Shown piece by piece: positions 12,041 through 56,904 of a stretch of 64,000 bases of DNA (positions within the stretch are counted from its first letter, which is position 1; each line of letters starts with the position of its first letter). The notes under the pieces are model-generated. The model searched no databases and was not told where the DNA came from. It worked only from the letters and a program-made list of their open reading frames with translations. The position numbers and the translations under genes were made by a program. This stretch comes from Escherichia coli (lineage in GTDB: Bacteria; Pseudomonadota; Gammaproteobacteria; Enterobacterales; Enterobacteriaceae). Location of the stretch: assembly GCF_013315695.1 (NCBI RefSeq), contig NZ_CP054353.1; one strand, 5' to 3'.

Positions 12041-12247
12041 TTTCTCGCCTTCCCCTTGAACGGGAGGGCATTTTTCTGAAATGTCCTCTCTTTAACCCAT
12101 AATAATATTTCCTTTGCTAGGATTTTTTCGATTTCCGATATATTCATAATTCATCAAGGTTGATATAAATATCAGCGAAGATCTCCAGATATTGTTGCGG
12201 AACTGGCGACGATAAAAGATAAATCAGATGATGAATGGTGGCGTGCA

Positions 12248-12526
12248 TTGCTGCAAAGTCGCAATGATCATTTGCGCCAAACGGCATTGCGCAACGCACA
12301 TACCCCGGTGTTGTTAACGACATTGACTGAGTCTCAGGATCGGTCGCTGGATATTAATAATCCACAGCTGGCTGCCGATGTGAAAACGGTGTGGCTAAAA
12401 GAGGAGCCATCATTACTTTTATTTGTCGATCAACCCGCTCTTTCGCAGTTACGGGATTTAGTGAAAACCGGGGCAACGCGGAAAATTCGCAGTGAAGCGC
12501 GTCACCGGCTTGAGGAAAAACAATGA
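12248..12526 (+). CDS. Small hypothetical protein in the position of K-12 ykiA (non-ATG start in ORF track)
   Basis: 92-aa ORF between ppnP and rdgC; no recognisable domain; start codon uncertain. Confidence 0.35.
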   Translation: MLQSRNDHLRQTALRNAHTPVLLTTLTESQDRSLDINNPQLAADVKTVWLKEEPSLLLFVDQPALSQLRDLVKTGATRKIRSEARHRLEEKQ

Positions 12527-14767: not shown

Positions 14768-15209
14768 CTACCCCAGTGGTTTCGCCAGCACCGGACTATC
14801 CGCCGCTTGCTGGCGCTTATAGCGACCATACAGCAGCAACGACGACATCGCAGCAAACGAAAGCAGGGCGGCAGGCAGCGCCACGTAATTATATGCCATC
14901 CCCAGCGTCAGCATCATACCACCGCAATATGCGCCGACGGCGCTACCGAGGTTAAACGCTATTTGCCCACCTGCGGCACCTAATAACTCTCCGCCTTTTG
15001 CGTTTTGCAGTAACAATATTTGCAGAGGTGCTGAAAGGGCAAATAATCCCGCGCAACAAATAAAAGCAAAAATAAGCGACGTTATTTTCATGCCGCCGAA
15101 GAAAAAGAGCATCAACAGTGCCAGTACAATGATAAAGTCAGTCACTGCTGCAATGCGCAGTGGTGAATAACGTCCTGAAATCCGGCCACTTAGCACATTC
15201 CCCAGCACC
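14768..15209 (-). pseudogene. araJ: araJ, C-terminal portion (gene split by IS1)
   Basis: Encodes ...VLGNVLSGRISGRYSPLRIAAVTDF... to the AraJ C-terminus; the ORF reads into the IS1 end. Confidence 0.85.
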
Positions 15210-15264
15210 GGTGATGCTGCCAACTTACTGATTTAGTGTATGATGGTGTTTTTGAGGTGCTCCA

Positions 15265-15540
15265 GTGGCTTCTGTTTCTATCAGCTGTCCCTCCTGTTCA
15301 GCTACTGACGGGGTGGTGCGTAACGGCAAAAGCACCGCCGGACATCAGCGCTATCTCTGCTCTCACTGCCGTAAAACATGGCAACTGCAGTTCACTTACA
15401 CCGCTTCTCAACCCGGTACGCACCAGAAAATCATTGATATGGCCATGAATGGCGTTGGATGCCGGGCAACAGCCCGCATTATGGGCGTTGGCCTCAACAC
15501 GATTTTACGTCACTTAAAAAACTCAGGCCGCAGTCGGTAA
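15265..15540 (+). CDS. insA: IS1 InsA
   Basis: 91-aa [43 protein letters not shown]... Confidence 0.95.
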
Positions 15541-15962
15541 CCTCGCGCATACAGCCGGGCAGTGACGTCATCGTCTGCGCGGAAATGGACGAACAGTGGG
15601 GCTATGTCGGGGCTAAATCGCGCCAGCGCTGGCTGTTTTACGCGTATGACAGGCTCCGGAAGACGGTTGTTGCGCACGTATTCGGTGAACGCACTATGGC
15701 GACGCTGGGGCGTCTTATGAGCCTGCTGTCACCCTTTGACGTGGTGATATGGATGACGGATGGCTGGCCGCTGTATGAATCCCGCCTGAAGGGAAAGCTG
15801 CACGTAATCAGCAAGCGATATACGCAGCGAATTGAGCGGCATAACCTGAATCTGAGGCAGCACCTGGCACGGCTGGGACGGAAGTCGCTGTCGTTCTCAA
15901 AATCGGTGGAGCTGCATGACAAAGTCATCGGGCATTATCTGAACATAAAACACTATCAATAA
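15459..15962 (+). CDS. insB: IS1 InsB (expressed as InsAB' by -1 frameshift at the A6C motif)
   Basis: 167-aa ORF overlapping the insA 3' end; TTAAAAAAC slippery run at the overlap. Confidence 0.95.
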
Positions 15963-15977
15963 GTTGGAGTCATTACC

Positions 15978-16729
15978 CCCAGCACCATCCCTAGCCCCAC
16001 TAACATCATAATAAAGGTCATCGCCGTTTCCGAAAAACCGGAAATAAACATCATGTATGGCTTTACGTAGCTGAACCAGGCAAACACACCTGCGTTGCCA
16101 AACATCGTAGCGGCGAAAATTAACCACGGGGCAGGGCTGCGTAAAAAGTGAAATTGTTCGCGTAGTTTTCCTTTCGCCTCGTCGCGAATATCCGGCACCC
16201 AAAAATAGACCGATGCCATCACCGCAATATTAAAAACAGCGATCAACAAAAAGGTGTAGCGCCAGCTAAATTCCTGACTTAAATACGTTCCCAGTGGAAT
16301 GCCCAGCAAATTGGCGACTGTCATCCCGGAAACCATCCCTGCCACGGCGGCGGTGACTTTGCCGGGTTTGATAATTTTTGATAACACGATCGCTCCGACG
16401 CCAAAAAATGCGCCATGCGGAAAGCCGGATACCAGCCGACCAATGGCGAGCATCAGGTAAGACGAAGAGAGCGTGAACATGGCGTTGCCAATGACGCACA
16501 ACGCCACCAGAAACAATAAGATATGTTTGAGTGAGTAGCGACTGGAAAAAAGCGCGATGATTGGCGCACCGACCACCACCCCCAGCGCATAATACGAGAT
16601 CATATGCCCGGCGGCAGGAATCGAAATTCCTACGTTATGCGCCAGCTCCGTGAGCACGCCCATAATGCCAAATTCGGCCATCCCCAAACCAAACGTGCCC
16701 AGAGCCAAAGATAAAATGACTTTTTTCAT
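15978..16729 (-). pseudogene. araJ: araJ, N-terminal portion (gene split by IS1)
   Basis: Starts MKKVILSLALGTFGLGMAEFGIMGVL... (MFS transporter); with the C-terminal portion and minus the 9-bp duplication it reconstitutes 1185 bp (394 aa). Confidence 0.85.
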
Positions 16730-21386: not shown

Positions 21387-22076
21387 ATGGCGAGACGTAT
21401 TCTGGTCGTAGAAGATGAAGCTCCAATTCGCGAAATGGTCTGCTTCGTGCTCGAACAAAATGGCTTTCAGCCGGTCGAAGCGGAAGATTATGACAGTGCT
21501 GTGAATCAACTGAATGAACCCTGGCCGGATTTAATTCTCCTTGACTGGATGTTACCTGGCGGCTCCGGTATCCAGTTCATCAAACACCTCAAGCGCGAGT
21601 CGATGACCCGGGATATTCCAGTGGTGATGTTGACCGCCAGAGGGGAAGAAGAAGATCGCGTGCGCGGCCTTGAAACCGGTGCGGATGACTATATCACCAA
21701 GCCGTTTTCGCCGAAGGAGCTGGTGGCGCGAATCAAAGCGGTAATGCGCCGTATTTCGCCGATGGCGGTGGAAGAGGTGATTGAGATGCAGGGGCTCAGT
21801 CTCGACCCGACATCTCACCGGGTGATGGCGGGCGAAGAACCGCTGGAGATGGGGCCGACAGAATTTAAACTGCTGCACTTTTTTATGACGCATCCTGAGC
21901 GCGTGTACAGCCGCGAGCAGCTGTTAAACCACGTCTGGGGAACCAACGTGTATGTGGAAGATCGTACAGTCGATGTCCACATTCGTCGCCTGCGTAAAGC
22001 ACTGGAGCCCGGCGGGCATGACCGCATGGTGCAGACCGTGCGCGGTACAGGATATCGTTTTTCAACCCGCTTTTAA
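21387..22076 (+). CDS. phoB: Phosphate regulon response regulator PhoB
   Basis: 229-aa [21 protein letters not shown]... Confidence 0.95.
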
Positions 22077-28763: not shown

Positions 28764-30209
28764 ATGACAATTTCAAATTCGAATTTATTGAAACCGTTTA
28801 TTCCTGGTACTGAGTTGCCACCTTTTAAAGAGGATGTTTTTTCTAAAACAGAAGAACAATTTAAAAAAAGCCCCCATGGCAAATTGCTTTTCATTTCCGG
28901 AAATGAAAACTTAGTAAACATTTCAGCGGAAAAAATCGATGAAATAAAAAATAGCAAAGATTTCTTTTCAAATATTGTAAATATAATAATTTTAATCATT
29001 AAGCATCCTGATAAAATTCTGCCCATTCTTCATGGTTGTCCTGCAGAGTCCATCGAACTCATTAAGAATGCGAAACGAACGGGGCAATGGTCATATGAGA
29101 TGACTGATAAGAACGGGCAGAATATTGAAGTGTCCTATATTTTCACTGATACCATAGATGATAAATCTGATGGAAAATTATGCTTAAAAATCTGTAACTC
29201 TTGCAACCAAAATGATTCTAGTACACATGAATATAAAATAGATCATCAACAGTTGAAAAATCACATAAGGCAACTTGAGGAGTGGGCCCTTCTTGAAAAG
29301 TTTTATGATAACAACGCTTATTATTCTAAACGTACAAAACAATTAGAGAAGAAAATTGCCGATGCGGGGTTTATAACAGGGAAGGTTAATGCCGATAACT
29401 TTAATGTAAAAGAGTTTAAAGACGATATAGCCTCGATGCTTTGTGAACAGCCCCCCATGCGTACACACCAGATTTCTTCATCCGGATACTTATCTGCCGA
29501 TAAAGTGCCTGATCTCTATAAGACAAATTTGAAAGACGCGCAGAGAGATCTGAAAACAACACCGGTTGACATCGATGGTGTTAGTCTAAAATCAAAAACT
29601 CGGGAAAAAATTGCGGAAAAAATTGCGAAAAAAACTGAGGAAAAAATTGCGAAACAAAATGCGAAGACCATTGAGGAGAAGAATAGTGAAAAAAACAAGA
29701 AAGAAACAAATCCTGAGGATAATTTTGTCTTAAAATTCTCACCGGACGAAATCAATGAGATGCTCCTGGATTACAGCGATGAAGAACAAAAAAAATTAAG
29801 ACCTTTTTTCACTAGTGATCACATCTATTGTTTGTTTGATGCTTTTAGTCAGGGTTTGCATAATGTTGCTCGTAATGGCAGTCCACGGTATGCAGGTTTA
29901 CTACATCAAATAGCATCCAACTCTGAGATATTACAAGATTTTGATCAACAATTGTTCTGGCGCACGTTTTCAGGAGGAGTCTTCCATCGACGTATCTCTG
30001 TGAACAGCGAGCCAGAAAAGACAGATGTATGGCGATTCAGTACACAATTTGATTTTCCACATATAAATGACAACGGGGAGTTGTCCAGAACGGTACTCAT
30101 GTTCGAGGGGGTTGCTGAAAGCAACTTTAAAGATATCGCCAATCATTCCAGCGAATGTTTTTCTTACAGTTGTTATGCCGCTCCGCTGGATGCGAATGCT
30201 AAAAAATAG
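28764..30209 (+). CDS. Hypothetical 481-aa protein in an AT-rich islet; internal Lys/Glu-rich repeat; C-terminal region with a candidate papain-like (OTU-like) cysteine peptidase Cys motif
   Basis: Long uninterrupted ORF with GGAG 8 bp upstream of the ATG; visibly AT-rich codon usage unlike flanking genes; not part of the K-12 malZ-acpH junction as I recall it; motif SDHIYCLFDAFSQGL (Cys356) and downstream FPHIND (His433); function is inference only. Confidence 0.7.
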   Translation: MTISNSNLLKPFIPGTELPPFKEDVFSKTEEQFKKSPHGKLLFISGNENLVNISAEKIDEIKNSKDFFSNIVNIIILIIKHPDKILPILHGCPAESIELIKNAKRTGQWSYEMTDKNGQNIEVSYIFTDTIDDKSDGKLCLKICNSCNQNDSSTHEYKIDHQQLKNHIRQLEEWALLEKFYDNNAYYSKRTKQLEKKIADAGFITGKVNADNFNVKEFKDDIASMLCEQPPMRTHQISSSGYLSADKVPDLYKTNLKDAQRDLKTTPVDIDGVSLKSKTREKIAEKIAKKTEEKIAKQNAKTIEEKNSEKNKKETNPEDNFVLKFSPDEINEMLLDYSDEEQKKLRPFFTSDHIYCLFDAFSQGLHNVARNGSPRYAGLLHQIASNSEILQDFDQQLFWRTFSGGVFHRRISVNSEPEKTDVWRFSTQFDFPHINDNGELSRTVLMFEGVAESNFKDIANHSSECFSYSCYAAPLDANAKK

Positions 30210-36520: not shown

Positions 36521-36763
36521 ATGCGCAAAATTACCTCAGTAAGCGTTGGCGAACAATTAGATAGTTTTATTACCCGGATGGTCCAGTCTGGTCGTTATGG
36601 CTCGGCCAGTGAAGTGATGCGTTCAGCGCTTCGTCTATTGGAACAACAAGAATCCCGGGATGAAGCTGTCAGAAATGCAGTTATTGAAGGTCTTGAGAGC
36701 GGTGAAAGTTCGATGACGCTTCGTGATATCGCAGCAGAAAGGAAGCAAAAACATCGTGTATAA
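36521..36763 (+). CDS. ParD-like (RHH/CopG family) type II antitoxin
   Basis: 80-aa protein MRKITSVSVGEQLDSFITRMVQSGRYGSASEVMRSALRLLEQQE...; RBS GGAG upstream; ORF track start at 36401 would run through the secF terminator. Confidence 0.75.
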   Translation: MRKITSVSVGEQLDSFITRMVQSGRYGSASEVMRSALRLLEQQESRDEAVRNAVIEGLESGESSMTLRDIAAERKQKHRV

Positions 36764-37037
36764 GCTTAGCGGAAAAGCTGTTGAAGATTTCAGAGGGATC
36801 TATGACTACACGCTGGGAAAGTTTGGTGAGGAGCAGGCGGATCGCTATACCGACTCTCTCGGCATTTTTTTGGATACACTCTCTCAAATGCCCGAGATTG
36901 GTCAAGACTATGATGCGATTCCAGAGGTAAAGAAGATCGCATTTAGGTTTCACACTGTTTATTACGTTATAAGAGTCGATGACATTCTCATTGCGCGCAT
37001 TCTTCATCAGCTGATGGAACCTCGCCGTCACTGGTAA
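36753..37037 (+). CDS. ParE/RelE-superfamily type II toxin
   Basis: About 94 aa from GTG 36753 ((M)YKLSGKAVEDFRGIYDYTL...FHTVYYVIRVDDILIARILHQLMEP); overlaps the antitoxin stop; start codon uncertain (36723 or 36753). Confidence 0.7.
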   Translation: MVYKLSGKAVEDFRGIYDYTLGKFGEEQADRYTDSLGIFLDTLSQMPEIGQDYDAIPEVKKIAFRFHTVYYVIRVDDILIARILHQLMEPRRHW

Positions 37038-38692: not shown

Positions 38693-39103
38693 TTACTGCA
38701 TAACAGGTTGAATGTCGTGGATACGTACAAAGTCTAACTGTTCTACAGAAATCCCCTTTAACTGTAACGGAATATCAACATCGCTGGGGACGAGGACGCT
38801 GGCAGGGGCATTAATCAATTGATTCTGCAAATTGATTTCCTGAAAGTTGTCTATTGTTCCCTGAATTTGCCCATATTCAACAGTTCCGCTGAATGCGGGC
38901 AAGGGGTCATTCGACTCGCCCTGAATACGTAGCGTCAGGGTGGTGCCATCTGTATCATGCGTAATATTCACTAGCGACATACGTAAAGTACCGATCTGGC
39001 TTTCCAGTCTTGCCGGTGTTTTCGCTCCAGGCAGAAGGTAAACCCCACTGCTGGATTTTGCATTCAGCCTGTTTTGCTGAGTGATTTTGACGGTTTCTTT
39101 ATC
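38693..39103 (-). pseudogene. yajI: yajI lipoprotein gene, C-terminal portion (split by IS200/IS605-family insertion)
   Basis: Frame encodes ...DKETVKITQQNRLNAKSSSGVYLLPGAKTPARLESQIGTLRMSLVNITHDTDG...VMQ; boundary placed so that both parts sum to 179 aa, the YajI length as I remember it. Confidence 0.7.
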
Positions 39104-39582
39104 CGGTGCGCCGTAAAACCCCGTCCTTCAGGGCGGGGATATAAGGCGCGGTTTTCCACCTGACCAGGTGTTTGCTGTTGTTCAATGTATTGGCGGATGA
39201 CGGATATTGGCGCACCTCCGCAGCTACTGGCAAAATAGCCAGGACTCCACAAAACGCCTTTGTAGTAATACCTGACTGCAATATCTGGTCGATCTCGTCG
39301 CAGTCACCTACCCGATACGCCTTTGAGGCTGTTTACCAGACTGGATATCGCCAGTTTGGGAGGATAGTTAATTAACAAATGGACGTGATCTGGTTCGCCA
39401 TCCATTTCAACCAGTTCAGCTTCAAAATCAGCACATACATTTGAATAGTAAGTGCGTAGTTTTTCTGTCGCGTCATGGTCAAAAATCTGGCGTCGGTATT
39501 TGGGACAAAGACCAGGTGAACATGCATCAGGAAAACACAATGCCTTCCACGCCGGATATCGGTTTCTTTTTTCACAGACCAA
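39064..39582 (-). pseudogene. tnpA: IS200-type tnpA (HuH transposase), apparently frameshifted
   Basis: N-terminal ORF 39304..39582 has CPKYRRQIF and the HuH motif DHVHLLINYPP, then stops; the C-terminal part (WSPGYFASSCGGAPISVIRQYIEQQ) continues in another frame (39064..39252). Confidence 0.6.
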
Positions 39583-40850
39583 AGTATCATTTGACCTGTG
39601 AAACGATTACAGGCATTTAAATTCCAGTTAAGACCAGGTGGTCAACAGGAGTGTGAAATGAGGCGCTTCGCAGGCGCATGTCGTTTCGTTTTCAATCGTG
39701 CTCTGGCGCTTCAGAATGAGAATCATGAGGCCGGTAATAAATACATCCCTTACGGGAAAATGGCTTCCTGGCTGGTTGAGTGGAAAAACGCCACTGAAAT
39801 GCAATGGCTTAAAGATTCGCCCTCACAGCCATTGCAACAGTCACTGAAAGACCTTGAGCGGGCTTACAAAAACTTCTTCCAGAAGCGGGCTGCTTTTCCC
39901 CGATTCAAAAAGCGGGGACAGAATGATGCATTCCGCTACCCGCAGGGCGTTAAGCTCGATCAGGAAAACAGCCGTATTTTTCTGCCGAAACTTGGCTGGA
40001 TGCGCTACCGGAACAGCCGTCAGGTCACGGGTGTTGTGAAAAATGTCACTGTCAGCCAGTCCTGCGGTAAGTGGTACATCAGTATTCAGACAGAAAGTGA
40101 AGTATCCACTCCGGTTCACCCTTCAGCATCAATGGTCGGGCTGGATGCTGGCGTGGCTAAACTCGCCACGCTGTCAGATGGCACAGTCTTTGAGCCTGTA
40201 AACAGTTTTCAGAAAAACCAGAAGACGCTGGCGAGACTTCAGCGACAGTTAAGCCGCAAGGTCGAATTCAGCAATAACTGGCAGAAGCAGAAACGCAAAA
40301 TACAGCGACTGCATTCCCGTATCGCAAATATCCGCAGGGACTACCTTCACAAAGTCACAACGACCGTCAGCAAAAACCACGCAATGATAGTCATTGAGGA
40401 TTTGAAGGTCAGCAACATGTCAAAGTCAGCAGCGGGTACGGTCAGCCAGCCGGGGCGCAATGTCCGGGCAAAATCAGGTTTAAACCGTTCGATACTGGAT
40501 CAGGGCTGGTATGAAATGCGCCGCCAGCTTGAGTACAAGCAGCTCTGGCGTGGCGGTCAGGTGCTTGCTGTTCCGCCAGCGTACACAAGCCAGCGTTGCG
40601 CGTGCTGTGGTCATACAGCGAAAGAAAATCGCCTGTCACAAAGTAAATTCAGATGCCAGGCATGTGGATATACAGCGAACGCTGATGTAAATGGCGCTCG
40701 TAACATTTTAGCGGCGGGGCACGCCGTTCTTGCCTGTGGAGGGATGGTGCAGTCAGGCCGCCCGTTGAAGCAGGAACCCACCGAAATGATTCAGGCGACA
40801 GCCTGAACGTAGCAGGGATCCACGTCCTTCAGGGCGTGGAGGATGTCAAT
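39104..40850 (+). mobile_element. IS200/IS605-family insertion sequence (IS609-like), about 1.75 kb
   Basis: Divergent tnpA (HuH Y1 transposase, degraded) and tnpB; near-identical subterminal imperfect hairpins at both ends; interrupts yajI; no terminal inverted repeats, as expected for this family; boundaries inferred. Confidence 0.75.
39598..40806 (+). CDS. tnpB: TnpB (IS605 OrfB family RNA-guided endonuclease; InsQ-like)
   Basis: 402-aa [20 protein letters not shown]... with RuvC-like motifs ([24 protein letters not shown]) and CxxC...CxxC zinc finger. Confidence 0.9.
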
Positions 40851-40979
40851 GAGTTGCGTCATCTCCTGGTTCAGTGTGCTGACGCTGTGTTTCATCTGCC
40901 GCACTTCGCTTTGCTGCACACAGGCGCTAAGGCTGAACAGGCTTCCCAGCAGGAGCAGTCGAAAAACGTTAGTATTCAT
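40851..40979 (-). pseudogene. yajI: yajI lipoprotein gene, N-terminal portion
   Basis: MNTNVFRLLLLGSLFSLSACVQQSEVRQMKHSVSTLNQEMTQL (lipoprotein signal peptide with lipobox LSAC), then the frame runs into the IS right end. Confidence 0.7.
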
Positions 40980-55075: not shown

Positions 55076-56011
55076 ATGTTAACTAAAAGAATATTATTTT
55101 CTTTAATGCTAATAGTTTCACCATGCGTGGTGGCAAGCGAGAAAGCGCATGAATTGTATGACAGCATATACGGTGGTCAACCTGCGCCCGATGTTATAAA
55201 TAGACTGCATAAAATGGCTGAATTGGGAGATGTCGACGCGCAGAGCCTGTTAGGCTGGGAATATTATCAGCCTCGCTTTGATACCAAACCTGATGTTCAG
55301 GAAGCGATTAAATGGTTTGAGTTAGCCGCTAAACACGGTGATAGAGAAGCTCCGTTAGCGCTGGGGAGTATCTACTACGACGGTGAGCTGGTGCGGGTGG
55401 ATTATGCCAAAGCGTATGCACTATTTAATCAGGCCGCGCAATACGGTGTGAATTTAGCATGGTCCAGGTTGGGCATGATGTACGCCAATGGTCAGTATGT
55501 TGAGGTCGATTGTAAGAAAGCGAAGGAATATCTTGATAAAGGTGTCCACATTTATGGTGGTCCGGAAGACTTTCTGGCTACATGTCGAAAAGACATGATT
55601 GACAGAAAAATGGTTGACGATACGTTACCCGTGATCACGGTTACCCGTTCTGGGATGCGGGATAATTTTTTAGATAAAGGTTTTTCCTGCATGGATAGCC
55701 TCTTCGCCACCACCAATAAATTAGGCGAAGTGGCCAATCTTCGCGTGACATTCAGCATTCGTAGCCCATCCGGTAAGGAGATTAACCAAACGGTTGGCTT
55801 CGCGCCTTTCGGTTTAAACCGGCTGAATATTAGCTTTACTGATTACATATTTGATTCATTTACCAGTAATTCGTCTCTAATTCTTTATAAACCGGAATTT
55901 GAGCGAAAATCTTGTGCAACTGTAAGGACCACAATCGTTGCCGCAACGGCAACCATTAACGGCAAGGATGTGGAGTTGCTGAAAGCGGGGGCAATTGAAC
56001 AAAAGTGGTAA
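55076..56011 (+). CDS. Secreted Sel1-repeat (SLR/TPR-like) protein with an uncharacterised C-terminal domain
   Basis: RBS AAAGG 6 bp upstream of ATG 55076; signal peptide MLTKRILFSLMLIVSPCVVA; repeated ...A..W...AA..G...A...LG..YY.G... Sel1 motifs; not part of the K-12 yajR-cyoE junction as I recall it. Confidence 0.7.
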   Translation: MLTKRILFSLMLIVSPCVVASEKAHELYDSIYGGQPAPDVINRLHKMAELGDVDAQSLLGWEYYQPRFDTKPDVQEAIKWFELAAKHGDREAPLALGSIYYDGELVRVDYAKAYALFNQAAQYGVNLAWSRLGMMYANGQYVEVDCKKAKEYLDKGVHIYGGPEDFLATCRKDMIDRKMVDDTLPVITVTRSGMRDNFLDKGFSCMDSLFATTNKLGEVANLRVTFSIRSPSGKEINQTVGFAPFGLNRLNISFTDYIFDSFTSNSSLILYKPEFERKSCATVRTTIVAATATINGKDVELLKAGAIEQKW

Positions 56012-56066
56012 CGCTGCTCAGTCCCCGGCTGAGGCAAAACTAGCCCTGGCCGGAGGCGATAATAAT

Positions 56067-56609
56067 CTAAGCCGCGAGAATATGCTGAATCGCTAAAAAC
56101 ATCGGTACAGCACCGAAAACATTGGGCCTCGCTGAAAGCTGAACAAAGCCGAGGCGAGTATAAAAGTTAATGGCGGCAGGGTCAGCATCAAGATAAACCC
56201 CTTTAATTGGTAATGCACGGTGAATTATTTTTACATGTTCAAAAAAATCACATAGTAGGTCCTGACCAAAGCCCCGCTTTTGATATTTCCGCGCTACCCC
56301 TAACATGACTAATCTGACAACACCAATCTCTGAAGGTTGTGAACCCTGAAGGACGCCAGAAACGCGTTGTTTTTCCAGCGAATATGCCGTAAAAGTACAG
56401 ATGCCAATCAGTTCACCACTTTGTCTGTCAATAAGAGCTTTAGCAGCACAGTCGCTATTACGCACACTTTTCTTTAGCGATGCGCGTACAAATTTATCGA
56501 TAACAGGGTTACCGCAATCAAACTGTTTTTGCCCAGGATAAGTAATATCAGACTGATAATTACAGGAGAGGACTATGGGCAGAGTAATCTCTTCATGCTT
56601 GTCGACCAT
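56067..56609 (-). CDS. GNAT-family acetyltransferase toxin (TacT/AtaT/ItaT-like type II toxin)
   Basis: 180-aa ORF with N-terminal FDCG motif (QKQFDCGNPVIDKF), cf. QRFDCGEEALN remembered from AtaT; GNAT acetyl-CoA signature (RGFGQDLLCDFFE); immediately downstream of and overlapping a DUF1778-type antitoxin. Confidence 0.75.
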   Translation of the reverse strand: MVDKHEEITLPIVLSCNYQSDITYPGQKQFDCGNPVIDKFVRASLKKSVRNSDCAAKALIDRQSGELIGICTFTAYSLEKQRVSGVLQGSQPSEIGVVRLVMLGVARKYQKRGFGQDLLCDFFEHVKIIHRALPIKGVYLDADPAAINFYTRLGFVQLSARPNVFGAVPMFLAIQHILAA

Positions 56610-56904
56610 CGCTGTTTTTCCTTTTCATTAACGCCTTGAGGGCGAGCGTCGGTTGAGCAGGTTCAGCGATGAGTTGGTTCATCAGTTCCCAGCTTTGATT
56701 CGAAAGCTCACGGCGACGTTGGTTATCAAGCACACTTTCGGCGCGTTCCATAGCTGCGCTCAAAATAAAAGCGCTTAAATCTACCCCAACGGCTTGCGCA
56801 GCTTCACGAAGTTTGTTTTTGGCGTCGGGACTGGTTTTGAGTTCAACCCGCGCATTTTTCAGCGTTTTATCGATATCGGGTAGAGCGACTGTTTTTCCAG
56901 GCAT
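56593..56904 (-). CDS. DUF1778 (RHH) antitoxin partner of the GNAT toxin (TacA/AtaR-like)
   Basis: 103-aa protein from MPGKTVALPDIDKTLKNARVELKTSPDAKNKLREAAQAVGVDLSAFILSAAMERAE...; RBS AGAGG upstream of ATG at 56904; ORF track start at 56970 is probably over-extended. Confidence 0.7.
   Translation of the reverse strand: MPGKTVALPDIDKTLKNARVELKTSPDAKNKLREAAQAVGVDLSAFILSAAMERAESVLDNQRRRELSNQSWELMNQLIAEPAQPTLALKALMKRKNSDGRQA

Follow-up and report, generated by a model that had tools for sequence, protein, structure and literature searches.

Interruption of araJ by an IS1A-type element, most likely a near-neutral lineage marker of a small Escherichia coli clone

In the window, the 64-kb stretch of Escherichia coli DNA analysed here, the gene for the MFS transporter AraJ lies in two pieces on either side of an IS1 element. 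How did the gene come to be broken, at what point in the history of this lineage did the break arise, and what would the bacterium have lost by it? The first-pass annotation had described a complete 768-bp IS1 enclosed by a perfect 9-bp target site duplication, and had called the event recent and simple. Our favoured reading, to which we give a probability of about 95%, is that an IS1A-type element transposed into araJ in the ancestor of a small clone and disrupted AraJ, leaving what is most likely a near-neutral lineage marker. This is an ordinary IS1 insertion and known in kind; the allele is already present in public genomes and has been annotated by RefSeq.

The hallmarks of IS1 are a length of 768 bp, imperfect inverted repeats, the insA and insB' genes, a -1 frameshift at an A6C motif, and a target duplication of 8 or 9 bp (PMC12428005). 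All of these are found in the element within araJ (Table 1), together with near-identity to IS1A. The two inverted repeat arms are placed by the repeat finder at the exact ends of the element and are 78% complementary over 23 nt. The insA product matches the Pfam families Zn_ribbon_InsA (1.3e-21, 76.4 bits) and HTH_Tnp_IS1 (4.7e-31, 106.6 bits), both above their cut-offs, and the insB' frame matches Pfam DDE_Tnp_IS1 (2.3e-78, 261 bits) and NCBIfam transpos_IS1 (145.6 bits, cut-off 100). The InsAB' transposase is produced by a programmed -1 frameshift at the A6C motif (PMC12428005), and the PGAP annotation of AF3, a genome with the same insertion, contains a joined CDS labelled 'programmed frameshift' with the same coordinates as in the window, 15265..15962.

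Table 1. Features of the interrupted araJ locus, with positions in the window.
Feature	Position	Strand	Remarks
araJ 3' fragment	14768..15209	-	coding nt 744-1185, stop codon 14770-14768; cut off from promoter and start
target site duplication, left copy, CCCAGCACC, 9 bp	15201..15209	.	araJ coding nt 744-752, on the other strand
complete IS1, IS1A type, 768 bp	15210..15977	+	transposase genes run opposite to araJ
IS1 left inverted repeat (IRL)	15210..15232	+	23-nt arm, starts GGTGATGCTGCCAACTTACTGAT
insA, 91 aa, GTG start	15265..15540	+	IS1 repressor / DNA-binding part
insB' reading frame, 167 codons	15459..15962	+	DDE catalytic part of the transposase
A6C slippery motif, AAAAAAC	15516..15522	+	within the insA/insB' overlap; TTAAAAAACTC located at 15514
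IS1 right inverted repeat (IRR)	15955..15977	+	ends ATCAATAAGTTGGAGTCATTACC
target site duplication, right copy, CCCAGCACC, 9 bp	15978..15986	.	exact match to the left copy
araJ 5' fragment	15978..16729	-	start codon 16729-16727, codons 1-250 plus 2 nt

Comparison with IS1A of K-12 (NC_000913.3 19796-20563) places the element firmly within this type. The two share the same inverted repeats, the same internal positions of insA and insB', the A6C motif and a 9-bp target duplication, and 767 of their 768 bases are identical. The one difference lies at IS position 444, where the window has G and K-12 has T, giving R for S in the InsB' part. The locations differ, the K-12 copy sitting downstream of nhaR and the window copy in araJ. 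In length, ends, coding content and likeness to IS1A, the element is thus the complete IS1 that had been described. Many other E. coli genomes have the same transposase protein, WP_103215986.1, in their annotation, and the element is the only IS1 copy in the 64-kb window. A weak IS1 promoter partly overlapping IRL has been described (PMC12428005), with which a promoter-like consensus match at 15217-15244 is consistent because it overlaps IRL; a promoter and terminator scan of the locus returned match counts no higher than those in shuffled sequence. Elements of the IS1A/IS1E 'consensus' type accounted for >99.9% of IS1 transposition in strain BW25113 (PMC12428005). The intact parts of the window copy and its one-base distance from the IS1A/IS1E type suggest that it would be competent to transpose.

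The element is flanked by exact copies of CCCAGCACC, as the first-pass annotation had stated, and the probability that nine bases at fixed positions match by chance is 4^-9, or ~4e-6. The repeat finder reports a 10-bp duplication, CCCCAGCACC, at 15200-15209 and 15977-15986. We rejected this longer repeat: the last base of IS1, C15977, equals C15200 by coincidence, and the true duplication is 9 bp. On established IS1 biology, an IS1A-type element would have entered araJ at codons 248-251 in the common ancestor of the window strain and the two other carriers, AF3 and MSB1_4I; the InsAB' transposase would have made staggered cuts in the target 9 bp apart, and repair of the resulting gaps would have left CCCAGCACC duplicated on either side of the element.

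Removal of the element and one repeat restores the gene. Deletion of 15210..15986 in silico yields a single uninterrupted 394-aa frame that begins MKKVILSL, and the fragment lengths add up accordingly: 752 nt for the 5' piece with its repeat and 442 nt for the 3' piece, less 9, give 1185 nt, the length of araJ in K-12. The restored protein matches the NCBIfam equivalog NF007498 with 761.4 bits (cut-off 499) over positions 1-390 of 390, and it comprises a single domain, Pfam MFS_1 (2.4e-42), at residues 8-329. Against the AraJ proteins of AF14 and AF10, two relatives in which the site is empty, it shows 0 differences. An alignment against reference araJ, proposed in the first-pass annotation, gives 388/394 residues identical to K-12 AraJ, with 6 that differ. 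The statement that K-12 carries araJ intact also proved correct: in MG1655 the gene (b0396) spans 1185 bp between mak and sbcC. The gene order mak(+) / araJ(-) / sbcC(-) is the same in the window, the sister genomes and MG1655, and the flanks of the insertion are collinear with those of relatives, with no deletion or rearrangement; the event is as simple as it had been taken to be. That the flanking sequence agrees with the clone's own relatives speaks against an allele acquired through recombination with another lineage.

A search for the occupied junction among 5,426 complete E. coli genomes, also proposed at the outset, found it in two: AF3 (NZ_OZ547117.1), a blood-culture isolate from the UK, and MSB1_4I (NZ_LR898874.1), a rectal-swab isolate from Australia. 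Both have the same insertion point, orientation and duplication as the window, and their IS1 copies show 0 mismatches to the window copy. In the RefSeq (PGAP) annotation of both, araJ appears as pseudogene pieces 'missing C-terminus' and 'missing N-terminus' around an IS1A-family transposase. For the empty site, a 196-bp query across the restored sequence matched 5,424 complete E. coli genomes, and in 5,419 of these (>99.8%) the site is uninterrupted, with CCCAGCACC present there in single copy.

These junctions also bear on whether the assembler might have misplaced an IS1 repeat in a gene that is really intact. Misassembly typically arises at multicopy repeats, and IS1 is found at at least 40 pieces in the sister chromosomes. 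However, misplacing a repeat would leave no exact 9-bp duplication of the target, and the same junctions recur in two complete genomes sequenced independently in different countries. An artefact of this kind is therefore effectively refuted, and we regard it as extremely improbable. As an observation in its own right, the number of IS1 pieces in each sister chromosome (at least 40 in both NZ_LR898874.1 and NZ_OZ547117.1) compares with a median of ~11 places per genome, and the clone appears IS1-rich.

The surrounding 64 kb is collinear among the three carriers, with scattered differences from the window numbering 4 in MSB1_4I and 10 in AF3. Two private nonsynonymous SNPs fall in the 5' fragment of araJ, V170M in MSB1_4I (16222) and G106S in AF3 (16414). 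At both positions the window keeps the base of the empty-site relatives; it therefore represents a third member of the clone and is neither the AF3 nor the MSB1_4I record. Among genomes in which araJ is intact, AF14 and AF10 (11 differences in 18 kb) and MS 21-1 are the nearest. This distribution places the insertion after the split from AF14, AF10 and MS 21-1 and before the three carriers diverged. Since the junction is shared by isolates from different continents, the insertion arose before the window isolate did and has become fixed within a small clone. The description of the event as 'recent' thus holds in part: the IS1 and its repeats are undecayed, but the junction is older than this isolate. 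With 4-10 SNPs per 64 kb, an absolute date for the insertion would be too imprecise, and we give only the relative order of events. The junction itself, …CACATTCCCCAGCACC joined to GGTGATGCTGCC…, offers a specific PCR or k-mer marker for the clone (2/5,426 genomes). The 5' fragment of araJ carries 2 of 12 scattered SNPs in ~1.9% of the sequence, an excess that is weakly suggestive of relaxed constraint following inactivation.

What remains of AraJ can be read from the two fragments. No intact, expressible araJ frame is present in this genome, the gene being interrupted after codon 250, and araJ in the window is a pseudogene. The frame of the 5' fragment continues into IS1 to give 257 aa, residues 1-250 followed by 7 that are IS1-derived. 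The break falls inside the MFS_1 domain, at the GNVLSGRISGR loop, and removes 144 of the 394 residues. The product of the promoter-proximal piece would accordingly be expected to lack the C-terminal transmembrane helices, and the distal piece has neither a promoter nor a start codon of its own. Because the break lies within the single MFS_1 domain, we infer a loss of function; to judge from the truncation, AraJ is almost certainly non-functional.

Could the 257-aa product retain activity, or could the two halves do so when expressed as separate proteins? The N-terminal piece does keep its native promoter and start codon, and a TTG-start ORF inside IRL (14768..15223, 151 aa) spans the C-terminal piece. 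This ORF is however a mechanical call, without evidence of a promoter or ribosome-binding site, the break with its loss of residues lies inside a domain that extends over residues 8-329, and the V170M and G106S changes in the sister genomes are consistent with relaxed constraint. The strong polarity that is classically seen with IS1 also counts against expression of the C-terminal piece. We consider retained function very unlikely, and disruption of AraJ remains the reading that we follow. The wording of the first-pass annotation, an arabinose-inducible MFS transporter, describes the gene, and its further statement that AraJ is inactivated is a deduction from the truncation, with a consequence that is probably small.

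No polar effect on the neighbouring genes is expected, because nothing lies downstream on the araJ strand before the convergent mak gene; araJ is monocistronic, and the consequences of polarity would extend to no other gene.

Several published observations indicate how little the loss may cost. AraJ belongs to the arabinose regulon, and in K-12 its induction depends on AraC and arabinose (PMC3935871). AraJ has no established substrate or role, and strains that lack it show no clear phenotype with arabinose (PMC3935871, PMC8363721); the ara system is shut off at the same speed in a ΔaraJ strain and its parent (Fritz et al., PMC3935871). The title of Reeder and Schleif (1991), as cited in PMC3935871 and PMC8363721, speaks of an 'apparent lack of function'. 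Since AraJ has no known phenotype under K-12 laboratory conditions, the mutation most likely has little or no effect on fitness, and it would have spread by clonal descent. The biological weight of the insertion is correspondingly small; few kinds of mutation in E. coli are commoner than the knock-out of a dispensable gene by IS1. The locus does add a natural example in support of the expendability of araJ. A literature search on araJ and IS1 found no account of this insertion and one relevant paper (PMC5419217), in which an evolved B strain carries an [araJ]-[brnQ] deletion, a different event.

The focal insertion is not the only one of its kind. At least six independent IS1 events fall within araJ nt 470-966, across 8/5,426 genomes, and the other carriers have their IS1 in the same half of the gene as the window. 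Two of them, in HS1496 at araJ nt 683 and in EC488 at nt 839, have the same orientation as the focal insertion and their own exact 9-bp duplications. LR-29-1 and AVS0193 both carry IS1 at nt 966 (L004:3003-3770 and L006:3003-3770), in one orientation and at one 9-bp target, CTCTCCGCC (araJ nt 958-966), again each with its own exact duplication. The IS1 copies of these four strains show 0, 1 or 51 mismatches, and the strain backgrounds differ. Between LR-29-1 and AVS0193 there are 51 differences spread along the element, and their flanks differ from 16 bp outward on the right and from 75 bp outward on the left. Different IS1 variants together with differing flanks therefore identify these as two independent insertions into an identical target, in unrelated araJ alleles.

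The first junction query joins pieces on the same strand and so sees insertions of the same orientation, and a query with the IS flipped was added. An apparent same-orientation bias among the four extra araJ insertions was rejected as an artefact of the first query, the flipped query having returned two inverted cases. These are JCC-EE 7 and FELIX_MS533, in which an inverted IS1 has its junction 5 bp from the focal site (L014:6206-6973 and L015:6206-6973). The element has 11 mismatches to the window copy and lacks a target duplication, and the 268 bp beside it, araJ nt 471-738, are missing. The arrangement resembles an adjacent deletion mediated by IS1.

For comparison we placed IS1 in silico in the middle of five control genes with 200-bp flanks: mak, sbcC, proY, malZ and yajR (centres 14170, 18400, 25917, 27668 and 53987, respectively). 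Among the 5,426 complete E. coli genomes, 0 true IS1 insertions were found in these five regions. Four apparent matches in mak were rejected: they are the araJ insertions, which the search had linked over the short gap between mak and araJ. With the focal event excluded, four same-orientation events in araJ stand against 0 in the five controls, an outcome with a probability of ~(1/6)^4 under equal rates, although araJ and the control regions are not equivalent and differ in GC and in tolerance of disruption. The araJ target region has a GC content of 46.5%, compared with 51.5-58.8% for the controls. IS1 has a regional preference for AT-rich DNA, and this preference combined with the dispensability of araJ is the economical explanation of the recurrence. 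It is also possible, though we hold this only tentatively, that IS1 has a true hot spot in the middle of araJ, where a local DNA feature attracts the transpososome, perhaps with dispensability or a mildly favoured loss contributing. The recurrent events may also be of use, as a small set of natural cases, for studying how IS1 chooses its targets.

The same recurrence could be read as convergent inactivation, with loss of AraJ beneficial in some niche and the focal insertion one instance of it; the repeated independent hits in araJ, with none in the five matched controls, speak for it. Against this, the doubling time of a ΔaraJ strain is slightly longer (Fritz et al., PMC3935871), a difference in the opposite direction. 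Each event is confined to one or two genomes with no sign of a sweep, and the site is uninterrupted in more than 99.8% of genomes. Moreover, the arrival of two IS1 variants at one 9-bp target, both in one orientation, points to target preference and not to selection, and the lower GC of the target region fits the AT-rich preference of IS1. We regard selection for loss of AraJ as improbable, and a near-neutral insertion inherited by descent remains our preferred account of the focal event.

Several other features of the window lie outside araJ. A SadB/YajI (DUF3251) lipoprotein gene at 38693-40979 is likewise disrupted, in this case by an element of the IS200/IS605 family. The element encodes an intact TnpB at 39598-40806, with OrfB_IS605 and Cas12f1-like TNB domains; its tnpA, at 39166-39590, is degenerate. 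Clustered within it (39319-40683) are a further 15-17 differences between the window and the sister genomes, a clustering that points either to gene conversion among IS copies or to differences in assembly or polishing. A 481-aa ORF between malZ and acpH (28764-30209), annotated as hypothetical protein WP_001571017.1, is frameshifted in MS 21-1 and matches no Pfam family at E<=0.01. Small accessory insertions interrupt the core backbone at 36521-37037 and 55076-56904: secF and yajD have a ParD/ParE toxin-antitoxin pair between them, and yajR and cyoE a TacA-family antitoxin paired with a GNAT acetyltransferase toxin, along with a TPR protein. In phoB, MSB1_4I has a private base change at 21746 where the window has the common base, and its PhoB accession is WP_097501980.1 compared with WP_000113933.1 in AF3 and relatives. 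Finally, the DUF2773 gene ykiA (12188-12526) is an N-terminally truncated pseudogene in the window, in all relatives examined and in K-12; unlike that of araJ, its decay is old and shared.
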